Translations under genes and position numbers: made by a program
The notes under the pieces: generated by a model
What the model saw: the letters and a program-made list of their open reading frames with translations, nothing else
Told to the model about the DNA's origin: nothing
The model's database searches: none
Assembly (NCBI GenBank): GCA_016187415.1
Contig: JACPJT010000007.1
Coordinates: forward strand, 68,821-132,820
DNA length: 64,000 bases
Direction: 5' to 3'
DNA from: Candidatus Aenigmatarchaeota archaeon
GTDB lineage: Archaea > Aenigmatarchaeota > Aenigmatarchaeia > CG10238-14 > SCSR01
Shown: positions 17,533 to 58,050 of the stretch, in pieces
Layout of the letters: every line of letters starts with the position of its first letter
How positions within the stretch are numbered: position 1 is the first letter of the stretch

Positions 17533-19770
17533 ATGGCTGTAGAGTACGAGGTTGTCAACGGCGCTTTGAGGATAAATTGTATGAACTGGGCAATACCGCC
17601 TAGCATAGAGGATTCGGACGCGACGATGGCTGTTGTAATAGACAAATTGCTCGAAGCCCGCGATGCGACCAGAGTGGTTTTGATTGAGGCCAGGGAAAAT
17701 GAATACGACGAAGACCAGACAAGAATGTTGCGCGAAATTGCGGACGCATATAACAGGATCATAAACGTCGACAAGATTCTCAGTTTGAAAAATCTTGGTC
17801 CGCCGCAATGCGAGAAACTTTACTCAAAGAGGCTGTCGGACCTGCAGTTTCTAGTTTTCGAAGTTCTCAGGAAAGACCCGATCGGGGCGTATCTAAGAAT
17901 AGTCAAGATGCTGAATGCAAACAATGTGTTGGAGAAGACGGCGCCGTTGGAACAGCGGGTGTGCTTCACCGACTATATCGACAATGCACTGGTGCCTATC
18001 AAACAAATTCTTGAAGGATGCACACTGATTCAGAAGACAATGCCGATTCTGCAAAATTATCAGGTTGGGAGCAGGGACATTTACCGTGAGCTGTTTTCGC
18101 CCGCAGTAAAGCCGAATTTCATGCTGACGAGATTCATGTTAAGCATTCCCAAAGGCGCAAGATTAATAGAGAAATATTCGATTTCAGGCGCCGATGTCGA
18201 AATTTATAAATTGCAAAACAAGGTCAGATACTTCTATCACATAATACCGCGTGAATTCATTCTTAGCGACGAAAAGTATTCCATTCTGGATTCGGCAAGG
18301 AGATATCTTGCAGCGCACAGGCCGACAGAAGCGGAGTCGGTAGAACCAGAAAAATCAAGGGAACTTTTCAAAACATTGGGACGGGATCTCGTGCGGGATA
18401 TAGCGAAAAGCACGGGAGTCGATCTGACATCGGCAGAGATAGAAGAGCTTGCGACAATCTTGGCGAGGTATACTGCAGGTTACGGCGTGCTCGAATTGCT
18501 TTTGTCAGACGAGAAAATCCAGGACATTTTTGTAAATTCACCGATAGGCTTGACGCCGATTTTCATCAACCATTCGGATTTTGAAGAGTGTGAAACAAAT
18601 CTCATGCCTACAAGCGAAGACGCGGATTCATGGGCGACGCGATTCAGGCTTAATTCAGGGAGGCCGCTGGACGAGTCCAATCCGGTGCTTGATACAGAAT
18701 TGACGGTTCCCAATGGCAGGGCAAGGGTAGCTGCGATAACAAGATCACTGTCGCCGGAAGGGTTGGCATTCGCTTTCAGGCGGCACAGGGACAAGCCGTG
18801 GACCATGCCGCTATTCATCAAGAATAAAATGTTCGATCCATTATATTCCGGACTGATGAGTTTCATCATAGACGGTGGCAGGGCGCTTCTTGTTGCCGGC
18901 GGAAGAGGTTCAGGAAAAACATCTGTACTGGCATCTTTGATGTTGGAAATAATGCCGAGATTCAGGGTCATCAGCGTGGAAGATACTCTTGAGTTGCCAC
19001 TTACATCATTGCGGCAGTTGGGATACAATGTAGAAAGAATGAAATCGCGGTCCGTAATAACAAGAGTTGAGACCGAATTGCCAGCGGACGAGGCGTTGAG
19101 AACAGCTTTGAGATTGGGAGATTCAGTTCTGATTATCGGCGAGGTCCGTTCTGTCGAATCGCTGGCGTTGTTCGAGGCGATGAGAATCGGTGCCATGGCA
19201 AATGTAGTTGCTGGCACCATACATGGCGAATCCGCTTACGGTGTGTATGACAGGGTCGTGCATGATCTTGGCGTGCCGCCGACAAGCTTCAAGGCATTGG
19301 ACTTGATCACTGTGTGCAATCAGTTGAAATCCCCGGACGGGTTGCACAGATTCAGGCGCGTCACGGAATTGACGGAAGTGAGAAAGCACTGGAAGGACGA
19401 TCCTTCTGAGGAAGGCGGTTTTGTCAATCTCATGGAATATTCCGCGAAGGAGGACAGGCTCAAGCCGACGGACACTCTGGTTGACGGCGAGACGCATGTG
19501 CTGAACGAGATTTCAAATAGGGTCAGGGAATGGAAAGGGCAGTGGGATGCTGTCTGGGACAACATTTTATTACGGGCAAAGATAAAAGAGACTATGGTGG
19601 ATTTTGCGAGCAGGCTGAACAAGAGCAGTATTCTGGAAGCCGATCATATCGTTATTTCCAATGCGATGTTCCATCTTATATCGGAGCAGGTGAGGCAGGA
19701 GGTAGGATCCATGGACTCGAAGATGATTTATGACAAATGGTTGGACTGGTACAAGAAGAGGGTCGGATAG
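17533..19770 (+). CDS. Type II/IV secretion-system ATPase (GspE/FlaI/VirB11 superfamily) with about 300-aa N-terminal extension
   Basis: Walker A LLVAGGRGSGKTSVLAS. Walker B/Asp box (VLIIGEVRS). His box present. 745 aa. Confidence 0.8.
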   Translation: MAVEYEVVNGALRINCMNWAIPPSIEDSDATMAVVIDKLLEARDATRVVLIEARENEYDEDQTRMLREIADAYNRIINVDKILSLKNLGPPQCEKLYSKRLSDLQFLVFEVLRKDPIGAYLRIVKMLNANNVLEKTAPLEQRVCFTDYIDNALVPIKQILEGCTLIQKTMPILQNYQVGSRDIYRELFSPAVKPNFMLTRFMLSIPKGARLIEKYSISGADVEIYKLQNKVRYFYHIIPREFILSDEKYSILDSARRYLAAHRPTEAESVEPEKSRELFKTLGRDLVRDIAKSTGVDLTSAEIEELATILARYTAGYGVLELLLSDEKIQDIFVNSPIGLTPIFINHSDFEECETNLMPTSEDADSWATRFRLNSGRPLDESNPVLDTELTVPNGRARVAAITRSLSPEGLAFAFRRHRDKPWTMPLFIKNKMFDPLYSGLMSFIIDGGRALLVAGGRGSGKTSVLASLMLEIMPRFRVISVEDTLELPLTSLRQLGYNVERMKSRSVITRVETELPADEALRTALRLGDSVLIIGEVRSVESLALFEAMRIGAMANVVAGTIHGESAYGVYDRVVHDLGVPPTSFKALDLITVCNQLKSPDGLHRFRRVTELTEVRKHWKDDPSEEGGFVNLMEYSAKEDRLKPTDTLVDGETHVLNEISNRVREWKGQWDAVWDNILLRAKIKETMVDFASRLNKSSILEADHIVISNAMFHLISEQVRQEVGSMDSKMIYDKWLDWYKKRVG

Positions 19771-20064
19771 ATGAGAGCTGTGGCCGTTCCGTACATCATA
19801 GCCATCGTTCTCGGCATTATCGTCATCGCCATAGTCGGATATCTGCTGTTCATGTCTTCCAACAATAGCATTTGCGCGGGAAAAGATGCCGAATGCCGCG
19901 GAAGAATTCTGGAGTGGTGCACAACAAAAACCGAATCTGCTAAACAGAAAATAAACGAAATATGCAGCTCATGCATCAAGGGTTTTGATTTTAAGGCAAA
20001 CGTATGCATCTTTTGCAAAACTGTTATACCAGGCTGGAATGACCAGGCTAATTGCGGTAAATGA
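19771..20064 (+). CDS. Small Cys-rich pilin-like protein (class III signal peptide candidate MRA|VAVPYIIAIVLG...)
   Basis: Starts 1 nt after the ATPase stop. N-terminal hydrophobic helix follows a basic residue plus Ala. 9 Cys in the C-terminal 60 aa. Paralog of the 24161 and 25518 ORFs. Confidence 0.5.
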   Translation: MRAVAVPYIIAIVLGIIVIAIVGYLLFMSSNNSICAGKDAECRGRILEWCTTKTESAKQKINEICSSCIKGFDFKANVCIFCKTVIPGWNDQANCGK

Positions 20065-20100
20065 TTCAAGTTTAATTCTTCCCAAACCAAATTTTAAATA

Positions 20101-22062
20101 ATGCCTGTAATCTCGCGCGAGTATAAGGAATTTTTAAAAGAGGAGGAACTGTCCAGAAGCCTGTCATTTTACGAAAGGCTGTGTCTGATTGCAGAAAAAT
20201 TCGCAGTCTTCCCGATGACCAAAGGCGTTGAGAATTCGTACAACGAAGCCATAAGTTTCTCGCATCTCAATGTCAAGCCGAAAGGCGCGTATTCTCTGGC
20301 GTTCCTTAGTGTATTGGGTATCATCCTAGCCTTCGTGGGTTTCACGATTTTAATCAACTCATTTTCTTTTGCTTCTGTAGTCCTTTCGCTTTTGTTGGCC
20401 GGCATAGCATTTTATTTTGTCGTCAGCTACCCGACGCATCACGCCACAGTGTTCAGGATCAACGCATCGTCCGAAATGGTCTTGGCGACAATTTACATGA
20501 GCATAGCGATGCACATCTCCCCGAATCTGGAGAATGCCGTCAGGTTCGCCGCCAGAAACCTCAAAGGGTCGTTGGCGACAGACCTTAGGGTATTGTTATG
20601 GGAGGTCTACACAAGAAAATATGAAAAAATAGAAGACGCTCTGGATTACTTTATTAAAAAGTGGGAGCGGGACAGCAAGGAGTTCACAGAATCCATATAC
20701 CTGATTAAAAATTCGACTGCAGAATCCCAGGAGAAACGAGAAAGGTTTTTGGACGAAGCGGTAACCGTGATGTTGGACGGCACCAAGGAAAAAATGAGGG
20801 ATTATTCGCGCCAATTGAAAGAACCTGTCACAATCCTAAATGCCATGGGAATACTGCTGCCGATAATAGGCCTGGTTTTTTTTCCCATCATGACCATATT
20901 CCTGCCGGGGCTGATCAAGCCATTGTTCTTGATACTGGGATATAATGTCTTCCTTCCGTTGATTGTCTTCCTTTTCATGAACAGTTATTTGGAGAGCAGG
21001 CCATACAGCTTCCACCAGCCCGACCTGAGCATACACCCGGATTTCATTGTTACAAAGTTATATGAAAGACCATATACGATACCGTTGCTGCTTTCGCTCC
21101 CGTTGATAGGTTTAGGACTGGCTGGCATACTTGGCGAAACGGAAGTTTTCAGTTTTCCCGCTCTGATGTATTCCATGCTAGTTACTCTGGGGATATTGCT
21201 TGGAATAATTTCATATAGCTATCTTTCAGTCAAGCGAAAACTGAAGATAAGGGACGAGATTACGGCAATCGAGACCGAATTTTCAGAGGCGCTATTTCAG
21301 CTGGGAAATATGCTGTTACGCGGCATACCTTTTGAGACTGCATTGAAAAAAACCAAAAATGAAATCAAGAATCTAAAAATATCGCAATTCTTCAACAAAA
21401 TATCCTACAATATAGAAACTTTCGGCATGACATTTGAAAACGCAGTATTCGACAAGCAGTCCGGCGCAATAAATTATTACCCGTCCAACATAATAGCGTC
21501 GATAATGCATGTCGTGGTTGAGACTTCCAAAAAGGGCATGCAAAGCGCGTCAAAATCAATGATCATAGTCTCGAAATATCTCAAGGACATGCACGAGGTT
21601 GACGAGGAACTGAAGAGCCTTCTGGAGGAAGTGTCATCGACAATGAACATACAGGCGGTTCTGTTGGCTCCTCTAAGCGCGGGCGTTGTCGTCACCATAG
21701 CCACTGTCATGACACGTCTTCTGGTAACCTTGGGCAAGACATTCAGCCAGGTGTATTCCAACATCGGTATCCCGCTCGGTTCGCCGAACGAAGTAGGCAC
21801 CAGCGCGCTGTCGTCAATAGCGAACATAAGTTCTATCTTACCAATCCATTTCTTCCAGCTTGTTGTCGGCGTGTATTTGGTGGAGATAGTGACGATAATC
21901 GCAATCACGCTAAGCACCATCACAAACGGCGAAGAGACCCTGCTGAAAAGATTTTCAATAGCAAAGACACTTCTTTACAGCGGTGCGGTTTACTTCATAA
22001 CGCTTCTGTTCACTTACTACATGTTCACTTCGGTGATATCTTTGGACAAGTTATTAACATAA
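20101..22062 (+). CDS. Polytopic membrane protein, candidate pilus assembly platform (TadC/FlaJ/PilC-like)
   Basis: 653 aa. Cytoplasmic helical domains alternate with TM clusters. It sits directly after the ATPase and pilin genes. Domain identity is not verifiable by eye. Confidence 0.5.
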   Translation: MPVISREYKEFLKEEELSRSLSFYERLCLIAEKFAVFPMTKGVENSYNEAISFSHLNVKPKGAYSLAFLSVLGIILAFVGFTILINSFSFASVVLSLLLAGIAFYFVVSYPTHHATVFRINASSEMVLATIYMSIAMHISPNLENAVRFAARNLKGSLATDLRVLLWEVYTRKYEKIEDALDYFIKKWERDSKEFTESIYLIKNSTAESQEKRERFLDEAVTVMLDGTKEKMRDYSRQLKEPVTILNAMGILLPIIGLVFFPIMTIFLPGLIKPLFLILGYNVFLPLIVFLFMNSYLESRPYSFHQPDLSIHPDFIVTKLYERPYTIPLLLSLPLIGLGLAGILGETEVFSFPALMYSMLVTLGILLGIISYSYLSVKRKLKIRDEITAIETEFSEALFQLGNMLLRGIPFETALKKTKNEIKNLKISQFFNKISYNIETFGMTFENAVFDKQSGAINYYPSNIIASIMHVVVETSKKGMQSASKSMIIVSKYLKDMHEVDEELKSLLEEVSSTMNIQAVLLAPLSAGVVVTIATVMTRLLVTLGKTFSQVYSNIGIPLGSPNEVGTSALSSIANISSILPIHFFQLVVGVYLVEIVTIIAITLSTITNGEETLLKRFSIAKTLLYSGAVYFITLLFTYYMFTSVISLDKLLT

Positions 22063-22078
22063 AATCCGAAATAAAATT

Positions 22079-22191
22079 ATGCGTAAAGCCCAAATTGAAT
22101 CCAAGATGATATGGATTATTATCATGTTGGCTATAGCATTGCTGGTAATCCTGGCGGCGTACGGCTCGACACAATTATTCAAGGGCGGATA
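22079..22191 (+). CDS. Tiny pilin-like ORF (37 aa, MRKA|QIESKMIWIIIML...)
   Basis: Basic-Ala followed by a hydrophobic helix. Not in the ORF track because it is shorter than 60 aa. Confidence 0.2.
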
Positions 22192-22194
22192 AAA

Positions 22195-22377
22195 ATGGAC
22201 AAAGGGACTTTCAGTTTGGGGATGGGTATCATAGTGTCGCTAGTACTCGCGTTTATAGCACTGATTCTCATCTGGTACTTTCACGAAAAGATTTTTGCCG
22301 TCTTTAGCGGTTTATTGCTGGAAGGACTGAAAGGTTACATGTGCAGCCTTATTCATGTGCCGTTCATATGCGGATGA
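22195..22377 (+). CDS. Small pilin-like ORF (60 aa, MDKG|TFSLGMGIIVSLVLAFIALI...)
   Basis: Internal start of the 22111 ORF. KG followed by a hydrophobic helix. Confidence 0.3.
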   Translation: MDKGTFSLGMGIIVSLVLAFIALILIWYFHEKIFAVFSGLLLEGLKGYMCSLIHVPFICG

Positions 22378-22411
22378 AATCGTTTTATTATTATTCCACC
22401 AAGTAATATCA

Positions 22412-24109
22412 ATGTCTAAAGCAGCTGTTAACGTTGTGGTTGCAATTGTTTTGGGGGTTCTTGTCATAGCCATCGGCGGTAGTCTTTTGCTCCAAACGCC
22501 GTCTCTTTGGAACAACATTCTTGATTTTTTGAAGGGGAAAGTAGCAGATTTTTTCATTCCGTCAGAAGGAAAGGCGCTGCATATAAAAGTCCATAGAGTT
22601 TCGCAACCAACATTACCGGTGATAGGATCACTACTAACAACTCCGATTAAAACAAGTACAGTAGACGAGGTATGGGATTTCAGACTATTCGACAAAACGG
22701 CATCTAAAAAAGTACTTTCCGGTAACGGTCAATATTTCATGATAGACACGAACTCGGTTACTAATAATTGTCTTTTATATATCACAGACGTGAGGGATAC
22801 AATAGTAGGTTCGCGTGATAAAGGATTTATAATTTATGTTAAACCAGGCGCTTATATCGACTATACCAGTCAGTCATTGTCTAACACGATTCCAACAAAT
22901 TTTATAGATTCATCTAAAACTGGATGTTTGATTGGATGGGGGACAGACGCAAATTGCAATCTTTGTCACACAGTTAAAGATGTCACTTGCCCATTCCCGA
23001 GTTTTCTGACTTTAGATACCCAATGCGTTGAAAATGCTAAATGCGAAGGTAAAAAAAATTACATCATTTGCAACCCATCTGATTTATACACCGGGTTTGC
23101 AAACGGATGCATAGGTTCGAATGAAGGCATGACCCCCTTAACTAATGCTATGAACATAGCATTCAATTCTTATTTGCCATCAAATAGTTGGAAAGAAACA
23201 TGCCAGAACGGGGGATGCGGTCTTTTGTCAGGCGACAAAGCCAGTCCAACATTCCAAGTCAAATACGGCCTTGTATGTTCGGACGGCGGCACATGGAAAG
23301 TATGTAAAAATCCGAAAGATAGTACAGCTTTTGTCAACAACCAAAAAATCGATTGTCTTCCATCTGGAGACCATTTCGATTGGAATAGAGTTTCCATAAA
23401 TCAGGCGTTGGGTATATCGTCACCCGCACCGCTACAAAAACCAGCTCTAATTTCGCCACTAGACGCTTCTGTAGTAGAACCGAGTACTGCTATCGGACCG
23501 TCTTCGCTTAACTTAGAATGGATGCAAGTATCTGGTGCACTTTCATATAAGTGGTACGTGAATGAAAATCCGAATAGACAAGAAAATGGAGAAAAGGTCG
23601 GTAGTTGTATCAAGCCAAACTCGAATAGTTTGGAATTAGATTATGCGACTGGAGAGCAATTTATGGTAGTTAGATCAAGTGCCCTGGAGACGCCGTTATC
23701 AGGTTCAGCTAAGACGTGGTTTTGGTCTGTAGAAGCCTGTGAAACCGACTCGTGCAATACATGCAGTGGTTATGCGCAAGAAAGAAGTTTCAAGACATCA
23801 AGCCTGGTTGTAACACCAACCACAATTCCAGTAAATACACCGATAAAAATCTCTATGGAGGCTATTGGTGATAATGTTGATCAGATATCTAGATTAACTG
23901 TAAACTATGGTGGTAAGTGGAATGACTGTTATTGCGACGGTTCAGTTCCGGGAAAAGCGTGTACGCAGTCGAATCCAACACAGTGCAGTAATACATGGGA
24001 TACAACAGAAACCACCATAGGAGCACATACGTATTATGGTAAAGTCTTTTATAGCAACGGAAAAGATGTAGATACACTGCCCAGCCAGATCAGCGTAACC
24101 GTACAATAA
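22412..24109 (+). CDS. Large Cys-rich pilin-like/adhesin protein (class III signal candidate MSKA|AVNVVVAIVLGVLVIAIGG)
   Basis: Probable start is M at 22412 within ORF 22355..24109. About 565 aa with more than 25 Cys in an extracellular region rich in Asn/Ser/Thr. Confidence 0.5.
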   Translation: MSKAAVNVVVAIVLGVLVIAIGGSLLLQTPSLWNNILDFLKGKVADFFIPSEGKALHIKVHRVSQPTLPVIGSLLTTPIKTSTVDEVWDFRLFDKTASKKVLSGNGQYFMIDTNSVTNNCLLYITDVRDTIVGSRDKGFIIYVKPGAYIDYTSQSLSNTIPTNFIDSSKTGCLIGWGTDANCNLCHTVKDVTCPFPSFLTLDTQCVENAKCEGKKNYIICNPSDLYTGFANGCIGSNEGMTPLTNAMNIAFNSYLPSNSWKETCQNGGCGLLSGDKASPTFQVKYGLVCSDGGTWKVCKNPKDSTAFVNNQKIDCLPSGDHFDWNRVSINQALGISSPAPLQKPALISPLDASVVEPSTAIGPSSLNLEWMQVSGALSYKWYVNENPNRQENGEKVGSCIKPNSNSLELDYATGEQFMVVRSSALETPLSGSAKTWFWSVEACETDSCNTCSGYAQERSFKTSSLVVTPTTIPVNTPIKISMEAIGDNVDQISRLTVNYGGKWNDCYCDGSVPGKACTQSNPTQCSNTWDTTETTIGAHTYYGKVFYSNGKDVDTLPSQISVTVQ

Positions 24110-24160
24110 CGCAAAATGCTTAAATATAATCCAAAACAAATATTAAATCAAGTGAAATTA

Positions 24161-24442
24161 ATGAAGAAAGCCGTTGCAGTCCCTTATATCATAGCCATCG
24201 TTCTCGGTATTGTTGTTATAGGACTTATTGGTTATTGGTTGTTCTTTTCCGGAGGAATTTTGGGAACAAATGCGTCAGAAACAAGATGCAATTCAGATGT
24301 GTTGAACTTCTGTAATACTATGCTCTCAGGTCAGACGGCAACAAAGGACTGGAAACAAACCGATAGTTGTAAAGGTGTAGGAAAATACGCTAGCCTATCC
24401 GCTTCCGATTGCAGGGCGCTCGGAGTTAACATACCAGGTTAA
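24161..24442 (+). CDS. Small Cys-rich pilin-like protein (MKKA|VAVPYIIAIVLGIVVIGLIGYW)
   Basis: Internal start of ORF 24116..24442. The N-terminal 20 codons are nearly identical, even at nucleotide level, to ORF 19771. Confidence 0.5.
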   Translation: MKKAVAVPYIIAIVLGIVVIGLIGYWLFFSGGILGTNASETRCNSDVLNFCNTMLSGQTATKDWKQTDSCKGVGKYASLSASDCRALGVNIPG

Positions 24443-24483
24443 CATACCAAATTCATTTCTTTAAGAAACTAATAATCTTATAC

Positions 24484-24540
24484 ATGTCCAAAGCGGTAGC
24501 TGTCCAAGCTATCTTCCTGATAATTGTCATATTTAAATAA
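24484..24540 (+). pseudogene. Truncated relic of the small pilin-like family (MSKAVAVQAIFLIIVIFK*)
   Basis: 18-codon ORF. It is nearly identical at nucleotide level to the first 16 codons of ORF 25518. Confidence 0.4.
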
Positions 24541-24563
24541 CAACCGTCATAATTTTATTACAT

Positions 24564-25103
24564 ATGTTACAAAATTATAACAAGTGGTCTGTGCTAAAAA
24601 TATTTTTTGATGACCCGTACCCGAAGGGAGACGGATTTCAACTACGAGAAATCAGTAGAAAGGTGAGATTGTCTACACCTTCTGTCAAAAAATACCTCAG
24701 CGAGTTGGTAAAAGAAGAGCTTATTATAAAATCTAAGCACCGGATACACGATTACCCATTATACACCGCTAATAGGGACAGCGAGAAGTTCCTCTTCTTG
24801 AAAAAAATCGACAATTTAATGTCTTTGGAAGAATCTGGTCTGTTAGAATTTCTGGAAAGAGCGTGTACGCCTGATGCAATAATTCTTTTTGGTTCTGCGT
24901 CTAGGGGGGAAGATACAAAAGTCAGTGATATAGATTTGTTTTTGCTGTGCAACGAAACTAGTCTTGATCTATCAGAATACGAAAAAAAGCTAGATAGGAA
25001 AATAAATTTGCTTTTCGCAGAGAATTTCCATGGTCTTAGCAAAGAACTCCGAAATAATATAATGAACGGTATAATATTGAAGGGGTATTTGAAGGTGTTT
25101 TAA
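24564..25103 (+). CDS. Minimal nucleotidyltransferase (MNT, Pol-beta superfamily) with N-terminal wHTH, antitoxin-like
   Basis: GS-x9-DxD motif LFGSASRGEDTKVSDIDLFL. Confidence 0.7.
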   Translation: MLQNYNKWSVLKIFFDDPYPKGDGFQLREISRKVRLSTPSVKKYLSELVKEELIIKSKHRIHDYPLYTANRDSEKFLFLKKIDNLMSLEESGLLEFLERACTPDAIILFGSASRGEDTKVSDIDLFLLCNETSLDLSEYEKKLDRKINLLFAENFHGLSKELRNNIMNGIILKGYLKVF

Positions 25104-25516
25104 TGCATGATGGATTGATAAAAATAAGGCCAGATAAATATAGAGCCAAGTCCGTCCTTAAAATGAGTGAAACTACTCTGGAGATGATTAGAAGTATAGA
25201 CTCAAAGAAATTTCCCTCTATTATAATAAAAGAATATTATGAAGTCATAAGAAGTTTGATTACTGCTATTTTAATAGCAGACGGTTTTAAAACAGAAGGC
25301 GAAGGCGCGCATAAGAAGCTTATAGAGTATCTAAATTCGAACTACAAAGAATTTTCCCAATATGAGATTTCAACTATAGACAATCTTAGAATAATGAGAA
25401 ACAAGATAGCCTATGAAGGATTTTTTGTGAACGAGTCCTACCTAAAGAGAAAGAAAGAACTTATATCTACAATAATAGAGAAACTGGAAAAAATATTAAA
25501 GGAGAAACTTATTTAA
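25103..25516 (+). CDS. HEPN-domain protein (toxin partner of MNT)
   Basis: 137-aa helical protein. Its start overlaps the MNT stop (TAATG). Classic HEPN/MNT pair arrangement. Confidence 0.5.
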   Translation: MHDGLIKIRPDKYRAKSVLKMSETTLEMIRSIDSKKFPSIIIKEYYEVIRSLITAILIADGFKTEGEGAHKKLIEYLNSNYKEFSQYEISTIDNLRIMRNKIAYEGFFVNESYLKRKKELISTIIEKLEKILKEKLI

Positions 25517-25517
25517 C

Positions 25518-25784
25518 ATGTCCAAAGCCGTTGCAGTCCAAGCGATTTTCCTAATAGCAGTAATAGCAATTACTTTACTGTTCGTCTTGGCAATATTCTG
25601 GGGATGGATTGACACCACGAAACTCGGCACAAGCCAGGCAACATGTTCCGCCAAAAAGGTCAGCTATTGCAGCAGCATCTTGAACGACAGGCCGAAACCA
25701 TTCGTCTGGAACACTAAAGAGCCAATCAACTGCGACCAATTCGGAATAAAAAAACCGATTAATAAAGCAGATTGTCAGCAATAA
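25518..25784 (+). CDS. Small Cys-rich pilin-like protein (MSKA|VAVQAIFLIAVIAITLLFV)
   Basis: Paralog of the 19771 and 24161 ORFs. Confidence 0.5.
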   Translation: MSKAVAVQAIFLIAVIAITLLFVLAIFWGWIDTTKLGTSQATCSAKKVSYCSSILNDRPKPFVWNTKEPINCDQFGIKKPINKADCQQ

Positions 25785-25808: not shown

Positions 25809-26189
25809 ATGAAAGCAAGTGCTGTCACAGAGGCAATCACCCTTGTAGGCGTGGTAACCGTAAGCGTCATGATGTTTTCCCAGGTGCCGGGCATAATCAC
25901 TGATATGAAGATTGTATTGTCAAAAGAGTCGTCTCTTTCAAAAGTGAAGGAAATATCAAGCCTGATAAGCATAGCCAGCAGTTCTCCGTCCGATATGAAA
26001 ATAGTCTACGACCTGAAGGAAAAGTCAAGCGTGTCATCGAAGGACGGCATACTGACTCTGACAACGTCCAAAGGCACGATTTCGTACAAGACCCTGAGCG
26101 ACCTGAAGGATTTCACAAAAGTTGATGTCGACAAACTTACTATAATTAAAACCATACAAGACGGGAAAGTAACAGTCGAGGTTATTTAA
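25809..26189 (+). CDS. Pilin-like protein (MKA|SAVTEAITLVGVVTVSV)
   Basis: Class III-like N-terminus. Ser-rich beta-type C-terminal domain. Confidence 0.45.
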   Translation: MKASAVTEAITLVGVVTVSVMMFSQVPGIITDMKIVLSKESSLSKVKEISSLISIASSSPSDMKIVYDLKEKSSVSSKDGILTLTTSKGTISYKTLSDLKDFTKVDVDKLTIIKTIQDGKVTVEVI

Positions 26190-26695
26190 TGAAGGCGCAG
26201 GCTTACATAGAGCAACTATTTTCAATCATGATGGCAGGCGTTGTCGTGCTGACATTCTCTTTGATAATCCCGAGCCAGGCCACCAAGATAATGCCCGAGG
26301 TCGAACAGGAGGAGTTGGAAGGCAGGGCGATCAATTTGGCAAACATAATCATGTCACACCCCAGCTTGGTTTATTCCGATGGCGTGACTTACTACAGGGG
26401 AGATTTTGATGCAAATAAGCTGGACTCGAATCCTTCAATAGATTTATTTTATCCAGGCAGTTTTTCAAAAGTCACGATAAAGGATTCGGTTACCGGAAAG
26501 GAATGGTCATTCAAGTTAATCGATAAAAAAAGCGATTCGGCAACCGCCTTCTCAAATTGTTTTGAAAGAACACAAGACATCAGCCAGTGCAATCCAAACA
26601 TGTTTTCTACAATAATGTCCAAAGGATTTCCAATCAACATAATGTATTCGGACAAGGCTGATCGAGGCATCATTACAGTTGTTGTGGTGGAATGA
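26189..26695 (+). CDS. Pilin-like protein (MKAQ|AYIEQLFSIMMAGVVVL)
   Basis: ATGA overlap with the upstream gene. Confidence 0.45.
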   Translation: MKAQAYIEQLFSIMMAGVVVLTFSLIIPSQATKIMPEVEQEELEGRAINLANIIMSHPSLVYSDGVTYYRGDFDANKLDSNPSIDLFYPGSFSKVTIKDSVTGKEWSFKLIDKKSDSATAFSNCFERTQDISQCNPNMFSTIMSKGFPINIMYSDKADRGIITVVVVE

Positions 26696-27183
26696 AAGGA
26701 CAATTGACCGGCTCGCCGGTTTTCATGGGTCTGATAGTGGTAGTCTCATTGATAGTGATCATCGTCACGCCACCGTCTGTAATCAAGGTAACTATTGACA
26801 AGGAAACCGCATTCACATATAATCTGGAAAATGTCCACCACACAATACTTTCAATTCTGTCCAACAAGGAGATGTACGAAAAGATTGGCATAGACATCAC
26901 AATTGACACAGGAACAAACCTTGATGCGATTGAAGGATTGCTAAAGGACCAATTTACAAACGGATATTGCATGTCCATATTCCGGCCAAGCACGACATTC
27001 ACAACCTATGCGATTCTTACCGGCTACGAAAATATACCTACAGCAAGTTCTCTGGGAACGTTGAAGACACTCTTGGGGAATTGCGCGTCGCTTGATGCTG
27101 GCTCCAATACAATCTTGGTTTTGCCTTACAGGCCGCCAGACAAAAATAACCTAGTTGAAATTATTAGGGTTGGTAAAAAATGA
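26692..27183 (+). CDS. Pilin-like protein (MKGQ|LTGSPVFMGLIVVVSLIVIIV)
   Basis: ATGA overlap with the upstream gene. Confidence 0.45.
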   Translation: MKGQLTGSPVFMGLIVVVSLIVIIVTPPSVIKVTIDKETAFTYNLENVHHTILSILSNKEMYEKIGIDITIDTGTNLDAIEGLLKDQFTNGYCMSIFRPSTTFTTYAILTGYENIPTASSLGTLKTLLGNCASLDAGSNTILVLPYRPPDKNNLVEIIRVGKK

Positions 27184-28232
27184 AAGCGAATGTGGCACTA
27201 GTTGCGCTGGTTTCCATAGCAAGCGTTTTGACAATAGTCGGCGTCTTTTCTTTCAGCATAGCGTATCAAACAGACACGGTTGAAAGGAGCATAAAGGAAC
27301 GCGGGATGATAGAGGTAATAAACCAGGTTGAATTTATCAAAGCGGCATTGCACCATGCGGTAGACTATTCTGTATACCAGTCGGCATACGAACTTTCCAA
27401 ATACGGGGGATACGACAGTTGCACAGTACCAGATGCGGGAGGGTTCAAGACGGATTTGCCGTATTGGAGGATACGTGACGCATGCTCCACGGACCAGTTC
27501 AAGGACAAGCTATCGAAAAGAGTAAATGAATTGTACCAACTCTACCTCAGTGCGATAAACAAGAAACTGGTTGGAGGTAACTTCCAGATACCAGACTATT
27601 CACCGCCCCAGATAAATGTTTTGGAGAATTCGTTGGATATTCTTGCGCAGGCTAAAGATAAAATTAATTTTAAAAGTTCAGATACGGGGCTTTCTGATAA
27701 CGGGGATATAAAAGAAAGTGTGAGAATCGAATTGGGAAAATTATTGTCAACAGGCGATCAGCTGTTCGTCCAGAGGGACGCTGTAGGGGATAAAATAAAT
27801 GGTGCAGAAAGCTCTATGAGCGGCAGTTGCAGGAGCACATATCAGGACGTATGCGGTTCGGCATATGCGGTAGCGATACCACCCTCTCAAGAATGCGTTT
27901 CACAATTTGCGTCTAACGTAAAATCCAGCATCAAGACTTTGGAAACCGAGACACAGGATTTGAAATTAACATTCTCGGATGATGATATCAAGGCAAAATA
28001 CGCAACACCGATAAAAAAGGATCCTGCCATAGCCATAGGCACCTGCAGTTGTTCGGATGAAGGTTGCTCAACATTATACAGAATTACATTCACGTATCAT
28101 TACATAGCCAGTGCAGACATCAAGGCAAGCATATCGGGCGATAAGATATATCCCGTGTTTGACAATGTCGACCAGAAAGCTGGCCTTAGGAATCTGGAAT
28201 TAAATTTCCGCGTCTTTTCTGAAAACAAATAG
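27180..28232 (+). CDS. Larger pilin-like protein, 350 aa (MKA|NVALVALVSIASVLTIVGVF)
   Basis: ATGA overlap with the upstream gene. Several Cys in the extracellular part. Confidence 0.45.
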   Translation: MKANVALVALVSIASVLTIVGVFSFSIAYQTDTVERSIKERGMIEVINQVEFIKAALHHAVDYSVYQSAYELSKYGGYDSCTVPDAGGFKTDLPYWRIRDACSTDQFKDKLSKRVNELYQLYLSAINKKLVGGNFQIPDYSPPQINVLENSLDILAQAKDKINFKSSDTGLSDNGDIKESVRIELGKLLSTGDQLFVQRDAVGDKINGAESSMSGSCRSTYQDVCGSAYAVAIPPSQECVSQFASNVKSSIKTLETETQDLKLTFSDDDIKAKYATPIKKDPAIAIGTCSCSDEGCSTLYRITFTYHYIASADIKASISGDKIYPVFDNVDQKAGLRNLELNFRVFSENK

Positions 28233-28239
28233 TATTTTC

Positions 28240-30228
28240 TCAGCCGGCGTTATATTTGCAAATGCCATCGGCCCAAGTGCATTTCGATGATGATAATTTG
28301 TTGCAGTCATCCTGATTGAAGTTCTCGCATATAGGATATACTGCCAACGACTTTGTATCATCTATAGATCTGGTGGGGCAATAATACGGCAGAGACGAAT
28401 ATTGGTTATTTAACTCCCGTGCTTTTTGGTAATCTTCATTCGCAGATATCGTTAATTTCTTAACATCGGGTGATGTCGATTGAATTTGCGAGTACGTGTA
28501 ATCAATGTCAACTTTGACAGGCACTGTTTTTGATGGTCCGGTGACCTGGGAACTTGCAGAATCTTTAACATTTACATCGCAGGCAACGCTAACACTTCCC
28601 TTCCCAATTGATAATCCAACAGGCTTGGCGCAACTTGTTAAAGTAACACTTCCATCACTCAACAAGTTAATTTCTTTATCTTTCTCCAGCTTTGTCAAAT
28701 CTTTATCGTTAACAAAAACAGAAGTTGTAGTAACAATGCCATCGCCATCATTCCTAATATCTATGAACATTTTTTTGGCTATGCTTTTCCCGTCGAATGT
28801 ATGAATGCTTGGAACAAAATACGTTGTAACAGTGACGGGTCCTGCACTGCTTTTTATAGTCGGCGTTAATGCAGGTTTTGGTGCGGTTTTAGCTAAAAAG
28901 AATGCTCCACTGCCTTCCACACTGAAATCATAGGTCGACTTTAATTCTACCGTCGCCTTATCATTATCGGTGAAACAAAGGTTGTCCATAATGTTATAAT
29001 ATTGGTTCAATGTGCAATCACAGCTATTTTCGCCTGCATTATATCTATATTGTGCTACATCAACAGAACTTGCCACATCGGGCTTGATGGAATATTTGTA
29101 ATAGAATAAGTTCAGTGCATCCACACATGCTTGGCTACTCTTTGCTGCCTGATCGTTGTTGCATACTTTCTTAGCCTGGTCCTGATTTATGCCTTTAACA
29201 CTGACGCTTGACGGATAAAGTGGAACAAAACTCGGATCACCACCTACAACTTTTCGACAATCTATCTTATTTGTAAAGTCTATGGACACTGATCTTTCTT
29301 CTTCGGGTGAAATGTCGCCAATGCTAATTTTGCCGCTAGGCACACTACCGCACAATATCCTCTTGGTGCCGGTTCCGCTGTTTATGAAAATATTGCTGAT
29401 CGCGAAATTCTTCACAACCAATTTGGTGTCAATTTTATTCGGGTTTATGACAGAAACAGGCAGTACATAATCCAGTCTTGCGAACAATGTCGGCAACGAA
29501 TAGCTGTTGTCTCTGCTTCCAAATTTCAACTGAATTGCTTCAAATCCGCCCACCTTTTCAACTTTCGGCGTTAGTCCTGATGCCGATTGGATACATGCCG
29601 ATAATCCAGACGGCGATAAAACGTTTTTCATGTAGCAGGAGAATGTGTCTAATAATTCACCTATCTTACCAGTGGGGGATATTATGCGGCTCAACTCACC
29701 AGAATTAACCGTCCATCCAGTGGCAAATATCAGCATGAAAATTATTAATATCGTTCCGAAGCCAGTTGTGAAACTGCGTTTCGCAAGCAATAGGGCAATC
29801 CAGAAAGCCGTTGCTGCCGTAAACACATCTATTATGAAGCCGCTAAAGTTAGTCAGACTTGGTAATATGGTAGAAAGAATTAAGGATGCAACGCTTACAA
29901 GCCCGTCCCTGAATAAGGGCGATATCGAAAATATTATCAGTTCGAATATAATGGTGTATAAGATAGTTTTAATAATTTTCGCCGTATCGATTCCACCGCT
30001 AACCTTTGAAGACTTGTTAAGAAAGTCTAAAATTTTATTTTCTTCAGCCTTTTCAGGATTGGCGCTTTTCCCAGTATTTTGATTTTTCGACCATTTTTCA
30101 TATTCCCACTGGCCAAAAAGATCGTTAATTTTCTGCTTGTCAGCACCAGATTTCGCAAGCATGTCATTGGCGTCACCCCACCTTCCCGATAAGTACAGTT
30201 CTTTAGCTTTGTCTTCTATGTCCGCCAT
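28240..30228 (-). CDS. Membrane protein: cytoplasmic N-terminal region, 4 TM, then roughly 450-aa extracellular Cys-containing domain
   Basis: 662 aa. Convergent with the pilin operon. Confidence 0.4.
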   Translation of the reverse strand: MADIEDKAKELYLSGRWGDANDMLAKSGADKQKINDLFGQWEYEKWSKNQNTGKSANPEKAEENKILDFLNKSSKVSGGIDTAKIIKTILYTIIFELIIFSISPLFRDGLVSVASLILSTILPSLTNFSGFIIDVFTAATAFWIALLLAKRSFTTGFGTILIIFMLIFATGWTVNSGELSRIISPTGKIGELLDTFSCYMKNVLSPSGLSACIQSASGLTPKVEKVGGFEAIQLKFGSRDNSYSLPTLFARLDYVLPVSVINPNKIDTKLVVKNFAISNIFINSGTGTKRILCGSVPSGKISIGDISPEEERSVSIDFTNKIDCRKVVGGDPSFVPLYPSSVSVKGINQDQAKKVCNNDQAAKSSQACVDALNLFYYKYSIKPDVASSVDVAQYRYNAGENSCDCTLNQYYNIMDNLCFTDNDKATVELKSTYDFSVEGSGAFFLAKTAPKPALTPTIKSSAGPVTVTTYFVPSIHTFDGKSIAKKMFIDIRNDGDGIVTTTSVFVNDKDLTKLEKDKEINLLSDGSVTLTSCAKPVGLSIGKGSVSVACDVNVKDSASSQVTGPSKTVPVKVDIDYTYSQIQSTSPDVKKLTISANEDYQKARELNNQYSSLPYYCPTRSIDDTKSLAVYPICENFNQDDCNKLSSSKCTWADGICKYNAG

Positions 30229-33794: not shown

Positions 33795-33899
33795 ATGGGG
33801 TCTAAGGGATTTGAACCCTTATCATTCGGTGTCTTCTTTCATCTGTTGTCAATTCTCCATGACAAAAAGTCTGGAGCCGAACGTTCTGACCAGGTTAAA
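33786..33899 (-). tRNA. tRNA-Trp (anticodon CCA) with a canonical 37/38 intron of about 40 nt
   Basis: Reverse complement gives acceptor GGGGTCT/AGACCCC + A73, anticodon stem TTCGG/CCGAA, loop CTCCAG|intron|A, and T-arm AGGGT-TCAAATC-CCTTA. The intron contains CATGGAG, complementary to the anticodon loop (BHB-forming). Confidence 0.65.
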
Positions 33900-33933
33900 C
33901 CAAGACCCCCTATTGTTAAAAATAAAAGTCAAT

Positions 33934-34557
33934 TTACTTAAGCTTAAAGAAAATTACAGCAACTATAAGACTGGGTATCATCACCGACAATAAATAAACC
34001 ATGCCCAATTCCAAGAAAAATCCATCTGGGTAAAGAGTTTTCAGAAAACTGTCTGATGGAAAACTGAAATTGTTTACAAAAGAGATTTTATGGAATAAAA
34101 GAAAGGCTGTCTGAAAATCCAAATAAGCAAATACTGCAATTAGTAATATTACTGAAAAAACAACAGCAGATGCAATTTTCGTCGATTTTATGATGAAATC
34201 TTTTCTGTCTGTTAGAAAGTAAGCGCTGAACATCAACATCGCCAAAGAAATACCGGCTATCGCATTGGAGTTATTTACAATATATCCGACGTCATTCATG
34301 TGGCTTGATTCATTTGCATTCAGAAATTCTAAATTCGAACCAGTCTTAAAAAATTCTATTATTCGATTATTGTAATTTTCCAAATCAGCAGGATTCATAT
34401 GGACATTACTATTTTTTTGCAAAACCAGCCACATACCATAACTAGACGATAAAATAGGAACACTCCACAAAACAAACGACAGGGATAATGATATAATAAA
34501 GACAGCTTTTAATAAAAAATCAAGATGCGAGGTTTCTCTCATAAATATGAAAGCCAC
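33934..34557 (-). CDS. Polytopic membrane protein (207 aa)
   Basis: 5-6 TM, no motifs. Confidence 0.35.
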   Translation of the reverse strand: MAFIFMRETSHLDFLLKAVFIISLSLSFVLWSVPILSSSYGMWLVLQKNSNVHMNPADLENYNNRIIEFFKTGSNLEFLNANESSHMNDVGYIVNNSNAIAGISLAMLMFSAYFLTDRKDFIIKSTKIASAVVFSVILLIAVFAYLDFQTAFLLFHKISFVNNFSFPSDSFLKTLYPDGFFLELGMVYLLSVMIPSLIVAVIFFKLK

Positions 34558-34637
34558 AGGTGGGAATTGAACCCACGACCTTCCGCTTGCCTGTGATGAC
34601 TACAGGGCGGGTGCTCTACCGTCTGAGCTACTGTGGC
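34552..34637 (-). tRNA. Intron-containing tRNA, possibly Thr (UGU); anticodon assignment uncertain
   Basis: Reverse complement gives acceptor GCCACAG/CTGTGGC + U73, D-arm GCTC..GAGC, and T-arm GTGGG-TTCAATT-CCCAC. It is about 13 nt longer than a standard tRNA between the D- and T-arms. A CCTGT/ACAGG hairpin, consistent with an intron, lies within the anticodon region. Confidence 0.5.
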
Positions 34638-52490: not shown

Positions 52491-53900
52491 CTATTCACTA
52501 AGGTCGACCAACGGTTTGTTGCTCGTTGTATTCACACCGTCGTTCTTGATAACGATATTATGATCGCCAGGGCCGAATCTTGTTGAATTTGTGATGTCTA
52601 TTCTTTGATACGGAATAACGAATCTTATTTTCACCGGTCCGGATTTCAGTTTTACATTATCAAAGTAATTTGTTCCGGGTGAAGAGAGAACTATAGTTTC
52701 ATTGGCTGCGTTGGCTATATTCGGGATTTCTCCAGATGTTGTGATTTTTTTTATCGAGGTTTCGTATAAGAATGCAATTTCAGTGGCTGTCAGCGACCTA
52801 TTCCATATCATAACCTCGTCTATAGTGCCGTTGAAAAAACTTCCAGTACCATCGGTAGATCCGATTACGATGTTGGTTGCGTTAGTCATCATACTACCAG
52901 ATCTTGAGGAAGAACTGACCGATACACCATTTTTATATAGAGTTAATGTGGTTCCGTTATATGTGCATGCAAAATGGATCCATGTATCATTTTCGAAACT
53001 TGTACTTGTACGAGGCTCTCCAACGTTACTCGAATTAGTTATGAAGCACGAAAACCTTGGACTTTCACCGACAGGATTAAGCCTTAACAGATAATCACCA
53101 AGTTTGCTGATAACTCGCCCTTCTGCATTCATATCAGTTCCTTTAACCCACGCCATCATGGTTATTGTATTGGTTATATTGAGAGTACTTGGAGTTCCTA
53201 CGTCTGTGTAATCCCCAACGCCATCATAATTTGTTGCGTTGCCAAAATTCCCTGTTACCCAACTTGGGCATGCGTTATTTGTGAAACATGCAGCCACAGT
53301 CGCATTTTTTAATGTACCGTTGTTCCTATAACCAGAGTAATCGTATGCTGTTGCTATGGAAGTGTTTATATTTCCATCAAACGGTAAAAATAAAACCAAA
53401 TCTCGCGGCTCACCCGGTACAAGATAAATCTGGCCTTTAGGATCCGTCGAAGGTATTACATCAGCTGATAATTGGAAGTTGGAAATATTACCTTCAGCAT
53501 ACCGGTTGAAATATTCCAGAAACGTGGGACTGGTTTCTATTTTCACATCGCCAGAAAAACCATCTAGAATAGTTCTTGTTCGGGGCGTATAGTCCAGATA
53601 AACCCAATCGTTTCCAGGATCCGTTCTCAACACGCCCTCTGTAATCTTAAGATGTATTGTCCTTTTTGATCCCTGTGCTTCCGATGCGACTGCTTTGACT
53701 GCAGAATCTATCAATTGCATGTTTTGCGTAGCTTCGTTGACTATACCGGCGTCTTTTGCCCTGTCGAGCATGGGATTTATGACCACCAGTACAATCGCCA
53801 TCGCCGCAAAGCCGAACGCTATAACCAGCACCATTGATATGAGCGGTGACAATCCTTTCATGGATTTAAATTTGGATTCAGTCGAAATAAAGGCGTTCAT
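52491..53900 (-). CDS. Pilin-like LamG (concanavalin A-like lectin) domain protein
   Basis: Internal start MKG|LSPLISMVLVIAFGFAAMAIVLVV (at 53861). LamG signatures: YDYSGYRNNGTL, DGVGDYTD, W.HFACTYNGTTLTLYKNG, and FNGTIDEVMIWNRSLTATEI. Confidence 0.55.
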   Translation of the reverse strand: MNAFISTESKFKSMKGLSPLISMVLVIAFGFAAMAIVLVVINPMLDRAKDAGIVNEATQNMQLIDSAVKAVASEAQGSKRTIHLKITEGVLRTDPGNDWVYLDYTPRTRTILDGFSGDVKIETSPTFLEYFNRYAEGNISNFQLSADVIPSTDPKGQIYLVPGEPRDLVLFLPFDGNINTSIATAYDYSGYRNNGTLKNATVAACFTNNACPSWVTGNFGNATNYDGVGDYTDVGTPSTLNITNTITMMAWVKGTDMNAEGRVISKLGDYLLRLNPVGESPRFSCFITNSSNVGEPRTSTSFENDTWIHFACTYNGTTLTLYKNGVSVSSSSRSGSMMTNATNIVIGSTDGTGSFFNGTIDEVMIWNRSLTATEIAFLYETSIKKITTSGEIPNIANAANETIVLSSPGTNYFDNVKLKSGPVKIRFVIPYQRIDITNSTRFGPGDHNIVIKNDGVNTTSNKPLVDLSE

Positions 53901-54514
53901 GATATTTTCACATTTTGTTGAAATTTATTTACATGCACGGCGCGCAAGCTAATCAGTCTGATATCAAAGAATCCAGTGTACGTGTCTTTATTGTTTCTTG
54001 TCTGTACCGTAATATTTTCTTCGTAATTCTCGGTTGGCAAGGTCACAGTCAGGTTGTAAGTCTGGCCGTTTGTGAATGTAAAATTATTGATCCAGATGCC
54101 GCTATCATTCAATAGTGTGGAATTTGTCTGTACAACAGACGTGTTCAGTTTGATGGTAACGTTTAGGTTTGTCTTTTCCAGAAAGTTGAAAATTGTTATG
54201 TTCATTGTCTGGTTTGTCGAGTTTGCAAGCACACCAACATATAACGCACTGAAATCCAGTGAATGCCGGTTGCTCCCAGTTCTGGTGAAATTCAGAAAAT
54301 CTATGGAGTGATCCAGTATGGTCTGCGGATTTGTTATCGACGTTTGAATTATTTCCTTTATCTCATTGTTCGTGTTTGCAAATACAGAATCTTCCAGCGA
54401 CACATCCAAAATATCCCTTTCAGTGGAAATCTGGGATATTATTGAATAAGCTTTCAGTGCAACGAGTGCTCCTATGATGATGACTGCAGTCAGTAAAAGC
54501 ACCTGTGCCTTCAT
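53897..54514 (-). CDS. Pilin-like protein (MKA|QVLLLTAVIIIGALVAL)
   Basis: 4-nt overlap with neighbours on both sides. N-glycosylation sequon-rich. Confidence 0.45.
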   Translation of the reverse strand: MKAQVLLLTAVIIIGALVALKAYSIISQISTERDILDVSLEDSVFANTNNEIKEIIQTSITNPQTILDHSIDFLNFTRTGSNRHSLDFSALYVGVLANSTNQTMNITIFNFLEKTNLNVTIKLNTSVVQTNSTLLNDSGIWINNFTFTNGQTYNLTVTLPTENYEENITVQTRNNKDTYTGFFDIRLISLRAVHVNKFQQNVKIS

Positions 54515-56174: not shown

Positions 56175-56182
56175 AAATATAC

Positions 56183-58039: not shown

Positions 58040-58050
58040 TTGTGAATAAA

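Follow-up and report, generated by a model that had tools for sequence, protein, structure and literature searches.

A single plus-strand operon in a 64,000-nucleotide (nt) stretch of a Candidatus Aenigmatarchaeota genome (assembly GCA_016187415.1, contig JACPJT010000007.1, positions 68,821 to 132,820) carries three genes for small cysteine-rich proteins with pilin-like N-termini. The whole stretch is called here the window, and coordinates refer to it. The operon opens with an ATPase gene, and continues with the first small gene (type A), a gene for a 653-amino-acid (aa) polytopic protein, two tiny membrane open reading frames (ORFs), a gene for a 565-aa protein and the second small gene (type B). 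An 18-codon relic and a two-gene cassette separate the latter from the third small gene (type C), which is followed by four more pilin-like ORFs. This layout matches that of archaeal loci for type IV pilus-like filaments (type IV filament, or TFF, loci).

The window includes the archaeal signal recognition particle RNA, and archaeal housekeeping genes, for RadA, an RPA-like protein, S-adenosylmethionine synthetase and a TYW2-type methyltransferase. The ATPase is 78–84% identical to ATPases from metagenome-assembled genomes (MAGs) of Candidatus Aenigmatarchaeota, and the deposited copies of all three small proteins, from a Candidatus Aenigmarchaeota MAG (212-kb contig), are letter-identical to those of the window. 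The window is therefore chromosomal DNA of a DPANN archaeon.

Three types of small cysteine-rich proteins

The type A (19771..20064, 97 aa, HYW23_03860), type B (24161..24442, 93 aa, HYW23_03880) and type C (25518..25784, 88 aa, HYW23_03895) genes lie on the plus strand, and all three products are deposited as hypothetical. Type B sits within a longer ORF starting at 24116; the conserved start is at 24161. The three ORFs had been described in a first-pass annotation, made by a model from the sequence alone, and the N-terminus proposed there to be common to them is found in all, as M-x(0-2)-[KR]-A-VAV followed by a hydrophobic stretch. The 6–9 cysteines credited to the proteins were miscounted, as type A features 8, types B and C 4 residues each.

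The criteria for archaeal prepilins (PMC4371748) are a G, A or S residue at -1, a charge at -2, and a hydrophobic domain located past the processing site. Position -1 is Ala in all three window proteins, position -2 is R in type A (signal M-R-A/VAVPYIIAIVLG, the slash marking the putative processing site) and K in types B and C, and a hydrophobic domain of ~20 residues, close to the N-terminus, follows the site in each. In a tally of 234 homologues, G or A is found at -1 in nearly all, and K or R dominate at -2. The large majority feature a class III signal, the commonest motifs being KG/IAVPY, KG/VAVPY and KA/VAVPY, and a few rarer N-termini do not fit.

The small genes are linked to a clear ATPase match and a weak platform match, and this synteny is kept in related loci. 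The type A ATG comes immediately after the stop codon of the first gene of the operon (17533..19770, plus strand), which encodes a 745-aa secretion/pilus-assembly ATPase matching Pfam T2SSE PF00437 (E = 3e-16, 59 bits, cutoff 24.9) and the TadA-like (7.5e-36) and FlaI (5.6e-35) models of NCBIfam, both under the equivalog cutoffs. The 653-aa polytopic membrane protein encoded by the plus-strand gene at 20101..22062 matches weakly T2SSF PF00482 (E = 0.066), and is presumed to be the TadC/FlaJ-type platform from its position and its conservation beside the ATPase in all related loci. At least 9 ORFs of the operon feature [KR][GAS] and then a hydrophobic stretch; class III-like N-termini were filtered by requiring at least 14 strongly hydrophobic residues, and at most 1 charged, among the next 22.

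Four cysteines are invariant in each type, and the first two are always arranged as C-x7-C, at about positions 42/43 and 50/51. Invariant residues are C42, C50, C65 and C82 in type A, C43, C51, C70 and C84 in type B (65 homologues), and C43, C51, C72, P80 and C86 in type C. The C-x7-C motif is present in 234/234 family members, and the first Cys is at residue 42–44 in 169 of them. Cysteines are even in number in 230/234 members (4 in 142, 6 in 49, 8 in 19). This parity provides strong indirect evidence that the residues may be paired in disulfides; the data fit two simple staples, and do not establish the disulfide knot imagined in the first-pass annotation. N-glycosylation sequons are found at 0.08 per family protein.

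AlphaFold2 models built on the family alignments have a lollipop shape, with a long helix of ~50 residues (N-terminal helix of 32 to 49 residues), a tiny all-helical head, and no predicted beta-strand. Helices span residues 3–34, 40–55, 72–75 and 83–86 in type C (pLDDT, the predicted local distance difference test score, 82.6); a continuous helix 7–55 and a short helix 81–86 are predicted in type B (pLDDT 72). C-x7-C is placed on the C-terminal half of the long helix, the two remaining cysteines in the short tail. Foldseek searches of the PDB gave 0 matches for the type C model and noise only (E ≥ 2.5) for type B, and profile searches of PDB sequences hit transmembrane-helix noise only. The weak Pfam and NCBIfam matches to DUF7541, CoV_E, CATSPERD, BufA2 and cytochrome c550, all far under cutoffs, were discarded as hydrophobic-helix or Cys-pattern noise.

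Conservation was assessed in 80 loci fetched around ATPase homologues (numbered L001 and following) and scanned for class III-like ORFs. ORFs of the small-pilin kind were found in at least 32 of the 80, a lower bound as many loci are truncated, including MAGs labelled as Nanohaloarchaea and Micrarchaeota. In the closest relatives, orthologues of each window protein reside at matching operon positions. Type A orthologues are syntenic in L001–L006 and L063, and their heads alone match by BLAST at E values of 4e-16 to 1e-6. Head-only E values range from 2e-29 to 1e-5 for type C, and are 1e-7 and 2e-6 for type B (L006, L025), the remaining syntenic type B counterparts having been placed by position and alignment. 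A collection of 5.8 billion proteins yielded 30 matches to type C and 74 to type B; most are unnamed, each one named by its source is called hypothetical, and none has Pfam domains. An exhaustive profile search of 1.84 billion representatives retrieved 550 clusters, defined at 50% identity, at E ≤ 1e-3, and 265 at E ≤ 1e-10, with members of 86–191 aa among the matches listed. One ATPase-anchored locus (L059, JBLGBK010000001.1) bears the label of a bacterium, Colwellia polaris, although its ATPase is archaeal (51% identity) and its pilin-like ORF at 21166 has four Cys and is of the Nanohaloarchaea type; mis-binning or mislabelling of the MAG contig is the probable cause.

The three types are ancient paralogues, residing at fixed positions of the operon. 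The first-pass annotation favoured a recent duplication or gene conversion, and pointed to N-termini identical at the nucleotide level in types A and B. The 20-mer ATCATAGCCATCGTTCTCGG does occur exactly twice in the window (19795 and 24188; none expected by chance), and the N-termini as a whole are not identical: the two copies share 72% identity across the 72 nt encoding the helix, and synonymous sites differ in each of the five codons preceding the identical run. Recent gene conversion was considered as a source of the 20-nt identity and set aside; the tract is short, the neighbouring synonymous sites all differ, and the evidence is weak. The type A N-terminus of the window is 72% identical to its own type B, vs ≤67% to type A orthologues, and homogenization within the genome is at most confined to a short patch. 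Types A, B and C are old: a separate set of orthologues corresponds to every type across Aenigmatarchaeota, and pilin-like C-x7-C ORFs resembling them are found in loci labelled as Nanohaloarchaea and Micrarchaeota. Paralogous pilins with near-identical N-termini are a known theme, as in Haloferax volcanii PilA1-6, and therefore are not evidence of recent duplication. Similarity beyond the helix holds for types B and C across the head (profile-profile comparison with the hydrophobic helix removed: probability 94%, E = 1e-7, 60 columns), and is limited to the C-x7-C region for type A vs either. Across the full length, the type C and type A proteins are 16% identical.

The relic and the inserted cassette

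The relic is an 18-codon plus-strand ORF (24484..24540) encoding MSKAVAVQAIFLIIVIFK and then terminating. As noticed in the first-pass annotation, it reproduces the start of the type C gene. Only these two places are found with a degenerate 39-mer (0 expected), and 33/39 nt are identical between the relic and 25518–25556, the 6 differences being all synonymous. Relic and gene are the two members of a direct repeat of ~48 nt. The left copy corresponds to the first 16 codons of the relic (24484–24531), the right one to the opening 48 nt of type C (25518–25565). In between is the cassette (24532..25516, plus strand), made by a leader of ~32 nt with a TTTAAATA box and by two genes. The type C ATG is found 1 nt past the last stop codon of the cassette in the window, 1–3 nt across the filled loci.

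Related genomes feature the site either empty or filled. Types B and C are adjacent, with neither cassette nor relic in between, in L001, L002, L004 and L005. Three loci, L063, L006 and L081 (a metagenome contig), have the cassette directly upstream of type C, each with a relic of its own right before the nucleotidyltransferase gene, the first of the cassette. The relic occupies the place held by the type C start in cassette-free relatives, being 41 nt past the type B stop in the window vs 49 nt for the type C start in L002. The L063 relic is preceded by DNA resembling that upstream of type C in L001 and L002; the window relic is assigned from its position only. The homology between relic and gene spans 16 codons in the window and L081, and ends where the conserved left end of the cassette (TTTAAATAAC...) begins; in L063 it ends earlier (~25 nt). 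The relic ORFs of the window and L081 both terminate with ...VIFK and a stop codon at the cassette boundary. From the end of homology at the cassette end, the pilin ATG lying beside the cassette stop, and the occurrence of empty and filled sites, it follows that the relic is the left copy of a repeat, and not a decayed gene.

Relics vary in their state of preservation. The repeat of L081 (79–126 and 1113–1160) features 6 differences, 5 of which are synonymous, and, in the window and L081 taken together, 11/12 differences between relic and gene fall at third codon positions (binomial P ~5e-5). This bias possibly denotes two functional alleles, brought together by recombination with a diverged donor, or a selected 18-codon ORF. 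The L063 relic is decaying, having an early stop (codon 13) and four changes that are non-synonymous, and the L006 relic is identical to its own gene at 34 of 36 positions. Each relic is closer to its own gene than to other relics.

The first cassette gene (24564–25103, plus strand) encodes a protein made by a winged-helix (helix-turn-helix, HTH) and a minimal nucleotidyltransferase domain. It matches Pfam Polbeta PF18765 (2.7e-8, 34.3 bits, cutoff 26.9) and NTP_transf_2 PF01909 (4.9e-8, 33.7 bits, cutoff 21), as well as HTH_24, and NCBIfam MntA under cutoff (3e-7). The second gene (25103–25516, plus strand) encodes a 137-aa helical, HEPN-like partner, which has no match in Pfam, NCBIfam or the PDB. 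Two of its orthologues give sub-threshold HEPN matches (E = 0.008–0.03), and the conserved motif is RNxxxY, not the RNxxxH of HEPN proteins, with no His.

The idea that the cassette always resides beside pilins was dropped. Among 80 related metagenome cassettes only the one in L081 has a type C pilin downstream, and the cassette is therefore not pilin-specific. Flanking repeats were searched for in 50 non-redundant loci with enough flank, by comparing the 160 nt upstream of the nucleotidyltransferase gene to a 160-nt stretch around the second gene's end. Mismatched pairs of upstream and downstream sequence (2,450) provided the threshold, set at their 99th percentile. Direct repeats of 19–84 nt, above the threshold, flank the cassette at 13/50 loci (~0.5 expected). 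Their sequence differs at each locus, and the loci include L147 (2865–2948 and 3919–4002), L151 (942–1018 and 2017–2089), L096, L090, L143, L128, L105, L131 and L127. The L151 repeat was initially taken for the start of a cysteinyl-tRNA synthetase gene; according to the ORF list it is made by the 3' end of the upstream gene and intergenic DNA. Repeats are therefore not always gene starts, and correspond to target DNA of any kind. An apparent repeat in L103 was discarded, as it was due to contig truncation. These long, target-derived repeats are the most unusual observation of the analysis, and a full-text literature search gave no description of target-derived repeats around modules of minimal nucleotidyltransferase (MNT) and HEPN proteins.

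The part of the operon around type B and the relic is an insertion hot spot. In L006, a 378-aa ORF (17665–18801) just upstream of the type B gene resembles a TnpB/OrfB-type transposon protein, a call made by eye from its zinc-finger C-terminus. In the same locus, a gene for a 488-aa, internally repetitive secreted protein (19245–20711) is inserted between type B and the relic.

Other genes of the operon and of the window

The two tiny ORFs behind the platform gene are both on the plus strand. The first (22079–22192, 37 aa) has a class III-like start, MRKA/QIESKMIWIIIML..., and is essentially headless; the second (22195–22377) encodes a 60-aa membrane protein with 2 Cys. ORFs of comparable size (42–76 aa) are found behind the platform gene in relatives (L004 at 15052, L006 at 14775, L008 at 14287, L014 at 14280). 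The 37-aa product, which begins MRKA/QIESKMIWIIIMLAIALLVIL..., could be a headless, Flp-like subunit.

The 565-aa protein (22412..24109, plus strand, HYW23_03875, deposited as hypothetical) is a large modular, pilin-like protein with 22 Cys. Its N-terminus, MSKA/AVNVVVAIVLGVLVIAIGG (MSKA/AVNVVVAIVLG), is of the same kind as that of the small proteins, and the sole Pfam match is a weak one to the Ig-like Big_7 domain (E = 0.043). Judging from these features, it is probably an adhesin-bearing pilin, with a large Cys-rich and possibly adhesive domain. Past type C, the four pilin-like genes (25809..28232, plus strand) encode proteins of 126 aa (MKAS/AV...), 168 aa (MKAQ/AY...), 163 aa (MKGQ/L...) and 350 aa (MKAN...), none of which has a Pfam match. 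The small ones have few or no cysteines; the 126-aa protein (ORF 25809) is Cys-free, and has orthologues in L001, L002, L004 and L063.

A minus-strand gene (28240–30228), convergent to the operon end, encodes a 662-aa Cys-rich protein with membrane segments and no Pfam match. A second cluster of pilin-like genes, with MKAQ and MKG starts, is located on the minus strand at 52491–58947. Two of its genes encode Laminin_G_3 (LamG) domains (E = 3e-28 and 8e-24), one encodes Ig-like repeats, another a 298-aa protein with 16 Cys, and one gives a weak match to DUF7289. These genes probably encode adhesin-type pilins, and no ATPase gene adjoins them. Two minus-strand tRNAs (33796–33909 and 34552–34637) were called by Rfam and missed by ARAGORN; the length of the former (114 nt) suggests an intron-containing archaeal tRNA.

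Interpretation and relation to known systems

We consider it likely that the three small proteins serve this Aenigmatarchaeota archaeon as pilins, building a type IV pilus-like filament, and that the relic stems from the entry of the ~1-kb cassette into the start of the type C gene. The first-pass annotation spoke of pilin-like paralogs, and this agrees with the class III-type signals, the presence in the operon of a platform gene and of an ATPase of the T2SSE/TadA/FlaI type, the lollipop predictions, and the syntenic orthologues found in many DPANN loci; sequence features, context and conservation thus support a pilin interpretation. Each precursor would be inserted into the membrane, and cut after the K/R-Ala pair by a PibD-type prepilin peptidase presumably encoded outside the window. 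The hydrophobic N-terminus, ~25 residues in length, would then become the core helix of the filament that the neighbouring ATPase and platform would build, and the small proteins may provide its major subunit. The exposed head would be unusually small (~50 residues) and free of predicted beta-sheet. Both cysteines of C-x7-C would lie on one face of the helix, where two disulfides may staple them to the two cysteines of the C-terminal segment. At the type C gene, the HTH-nucleotidyltransferase/HEPN-like cassette would have entered the first ~48 nt, duplicating this stretch on both sides, so that the native promoter would now read relic, cassette, and then pilin.

Several results weigh against this picture. 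None of the three proteins matches a curated pilin model of Pfam or NCBIfam at E ≤ 1, and, when 65 homologues were compared to pilin models, only 6 weakly touched the bacterial N_methyl model (best E = 0.003). No prepilin peptidase (peptidase A24) is encoded by the window ORFs scanned, a set that left out ~20 ORFs. Head-only profile-profile comparison of type A to B or C gives a probability of 33–42%, over a 17-column segment including C-x7-C only. As to the cassette, no recombinase is encoded within its ~1 kb, and the identity of its proteins (72% in L063, 47% in L006) tracks genome relatedness, a pattern that may also fit one old insertion followed by losses.

Alternatively, the small proteins could be peptidase substrates or N-terminally anchored proteins that stay in the membrane, as Cys-rich adhesins or pseudopilin-like stalks, with the filament subunit encoded elsewhere in the operon, for instance by the headless 22079 or the Cys-free 25809. 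Class III signals are also found on archaeal non-pilins, as sugar-binding proteins (PMC4371748), and the operon does feature many further pilin-like ORFs. Yet the traits seen here are typical of pilin sets: the proteins are small, their conserved helix has the canonical length for a pilin, synteny with the ATPase is strict, and several paralogues follow a common N-terminal design. Haloferax PilA1-6 provide a precedent, and we regard a membrane-confined role as unlikely. That the small ORFs, being short and lacking any database annotation, are chance ORFs or annotation artefacts is next to impossible, given hundreds of homologues with invariant cysteines and conserved synteny.

The relic had been explained in the first-pass annotation by duplication and decay. 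According to this explanation, a local or tandem copy of the type C gene was worn down to 18 codons, and the cassette genes are unrelated neighbours. Relic and gene are indeed alike at 33/39 nt, and paralogous pilin genes are common in the operon. The account is nonetheless highly improbable: the homology stops at the conserved left end of the cassette in both the window and L081, relatives carry cassette and relic together or neither, the excess of third-position differences is unlike neutral or random decay, and related cassettes in unrelated targets show the same pattern of flanking repeats. Doubtful, but possible, is that the cassette was inserted only once in the remote past, that the repeats do not stem from the insertion and are kept alike by gene conversion or selection, and that the 18-codon ORF works as an upstream ORF, coupling cassette and pilin in translation or regulation. 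The identity of the cassette proteins parallels that of the ATPases (82% in L063, 78% in L006), relics resemble their own genes more than other relics, with 34 of 36 positions identical in L006, differences are all synonymous in the window and 5/6 in L081, and the ...VIFK end is shared. Against this reading are the non-synonymous changes and early stop of the L063 relic, the interleaving of the cassette-free L001, L002, L004 and L005 with cassette-bearing genomes at similar ATPase identity, and the occurrence of target-derived repeats also where related cassettes reside in other, unrelated places. Repeated insertion, and a single early insertion with later losses and conversion, both fit the data.

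A bolder proposal goes beyond the entry of the cassette into a pilin gene, and is held only tentatively. The cassette might be a tiny mobile unit of ~1 kb that, without a recombinase, leaves target duplications of 19–84 nt, and the C-x7-C four-Cys proteins the long-missing structural pilins of DPANN filaments, with a head fold that no solved pilin has. If true, toxin-antitoxin-like modules would spread by an undescribed route, and be wired into the surface-structure operons of DPANN. Since filled and empty sites are available in sister genomes, and repeats are clear, the cassette is a tractable case for studying the movement of small modules of this kind.

Physical contact with host cells is assumed to be essential to DPANN archaea, and pili are leading candidates for establishing it. 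A signature made by K/R-G/A and a hydrophobic helix, C-x7-C at ~43/51 and two later Cys, in a protein of 90–130 aa encoded beside the ATPase, covers at least 550 clusters (50% identity), and may be converted directly into a family model for annotation. The small proteins offer concrete targets for proteomics, antibodies and cryo-electron tomography of enrichment cultures. If confirmed, the beta-free, disulfide-stapled head would be a minimal solution to the pilin head.

The cassette recalls MNT/HEPN modules (MntA/HepT, type VII), in which a minimal nucleotidyltransferase gene is followed by one for a small helical protein, and its nucleotidyltransferase domain is above the Pfam cutoff. In contrast to these modules, the window nucleotidyltransferase has an N-terminal winged helix, and the partner features RNxxxY rather than Rx4-6H, and stays under Pfam thresholds. 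Target-derived flanking repeats of 19–84 nt are not a known feature of MNT/HEPN modules.

The heads of solved archaeal pilins are beta-sandwiches, and rely on glycosylation. The small proteins resemble the archaeal class III pilins (Haloferax volcanii PilA1-PilA6, Methanococcus EpdA-E, Sulfolobus AapA/B and UpsA/B) in the charged -2 residue, G/A/S at -1 and the hydrophobic domain, as in the link to a PilB/FlaI-type ATPase and a PilC/TadC-type platform. Similarly shared is the presence of several paralogues with a near-identical hydrophobic domain, which is almost identical in Haloferax volcanii PilA1-6 (PMC4371748). They differ in matching no sequence model, in having a head of ~50 residues, predicted to be all-helical, with four invariant Cys, and in the scarcity of N-glycosylation sequons.

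In type IVa pilins, a C-terminal disulfide (D-region) pins the tail of the protein. Bacterial small or helical pilins (Streptococcus ComGC, Geobacter PilA, Flp/Tad) share with the window proteins the lollipop shape, the long N-terminal helix and a minimal head; in addition to the 6 of 65 members that touch N_methyl, some members feature Glu/Gln at +5 (KG/MSATE, KG/MTATQ). Homology was not detected, and, unlike bacterial pilins, the family is hosted by archaea and would have two disulfides anchored on the helix through C-x7-C. Conserved cysteines have been noted in pilins of Thermoproteales (Makarova et al. 2016, PMC4858521). As the window proteins, those of the Thermoproteales type IV pili (subclade 4E of Makarova, Koonin and Albers 2016) are encoded in pilus loci and feature multiple conserved Cys, proposed to form stabilizing disulfides (PMC4858521; bioRxiv 10.64898/2026.04.22.720090). 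In contrast to the window proteins, they reside in hyperthermophilic Thermoproteota, are larger, and have an extra C-terminal domain; no sequence relation was detected.

A further parallel is with the DPANN pilus loci themselves. According to Makarova, Wolf and Koonin (2019, Fig. 2A, PMC6393860), these encode FlaI, TadC and signal-peptide proteins without detectable relatives, which were inferred to be pilins and assigned to the "dark matter"; a Nanohaloarchaeota study was unable to annotate any pilin (PMC9563170). DPANN are dealt with only in passing in a 2026 preprint that classifies the TFF systems of archaea (bioRxiv 10.64898/2026.04.22.720090). The situation in the window is the same, and the consulted parts of the two former papers do not define the family, its C-x7-C/four-Cys signature or its A/B/C organization. 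The statement of the first-pass annotation that such proteins are not a described class thus holds in part. There is no relative in Pfam, NCBIfam or the PDB, and source-named members are all hypothetical, but divergent DPANN pilins and Cys-bearing archaeal pilins had been noted (PMC6393860, PMC4858521). Unannotated divergent pilins in DPANN loci are already known; a family with a four-Cys C-x7-C signature, three paralogue types and a predicted beta-free head is not described in the literature searched.

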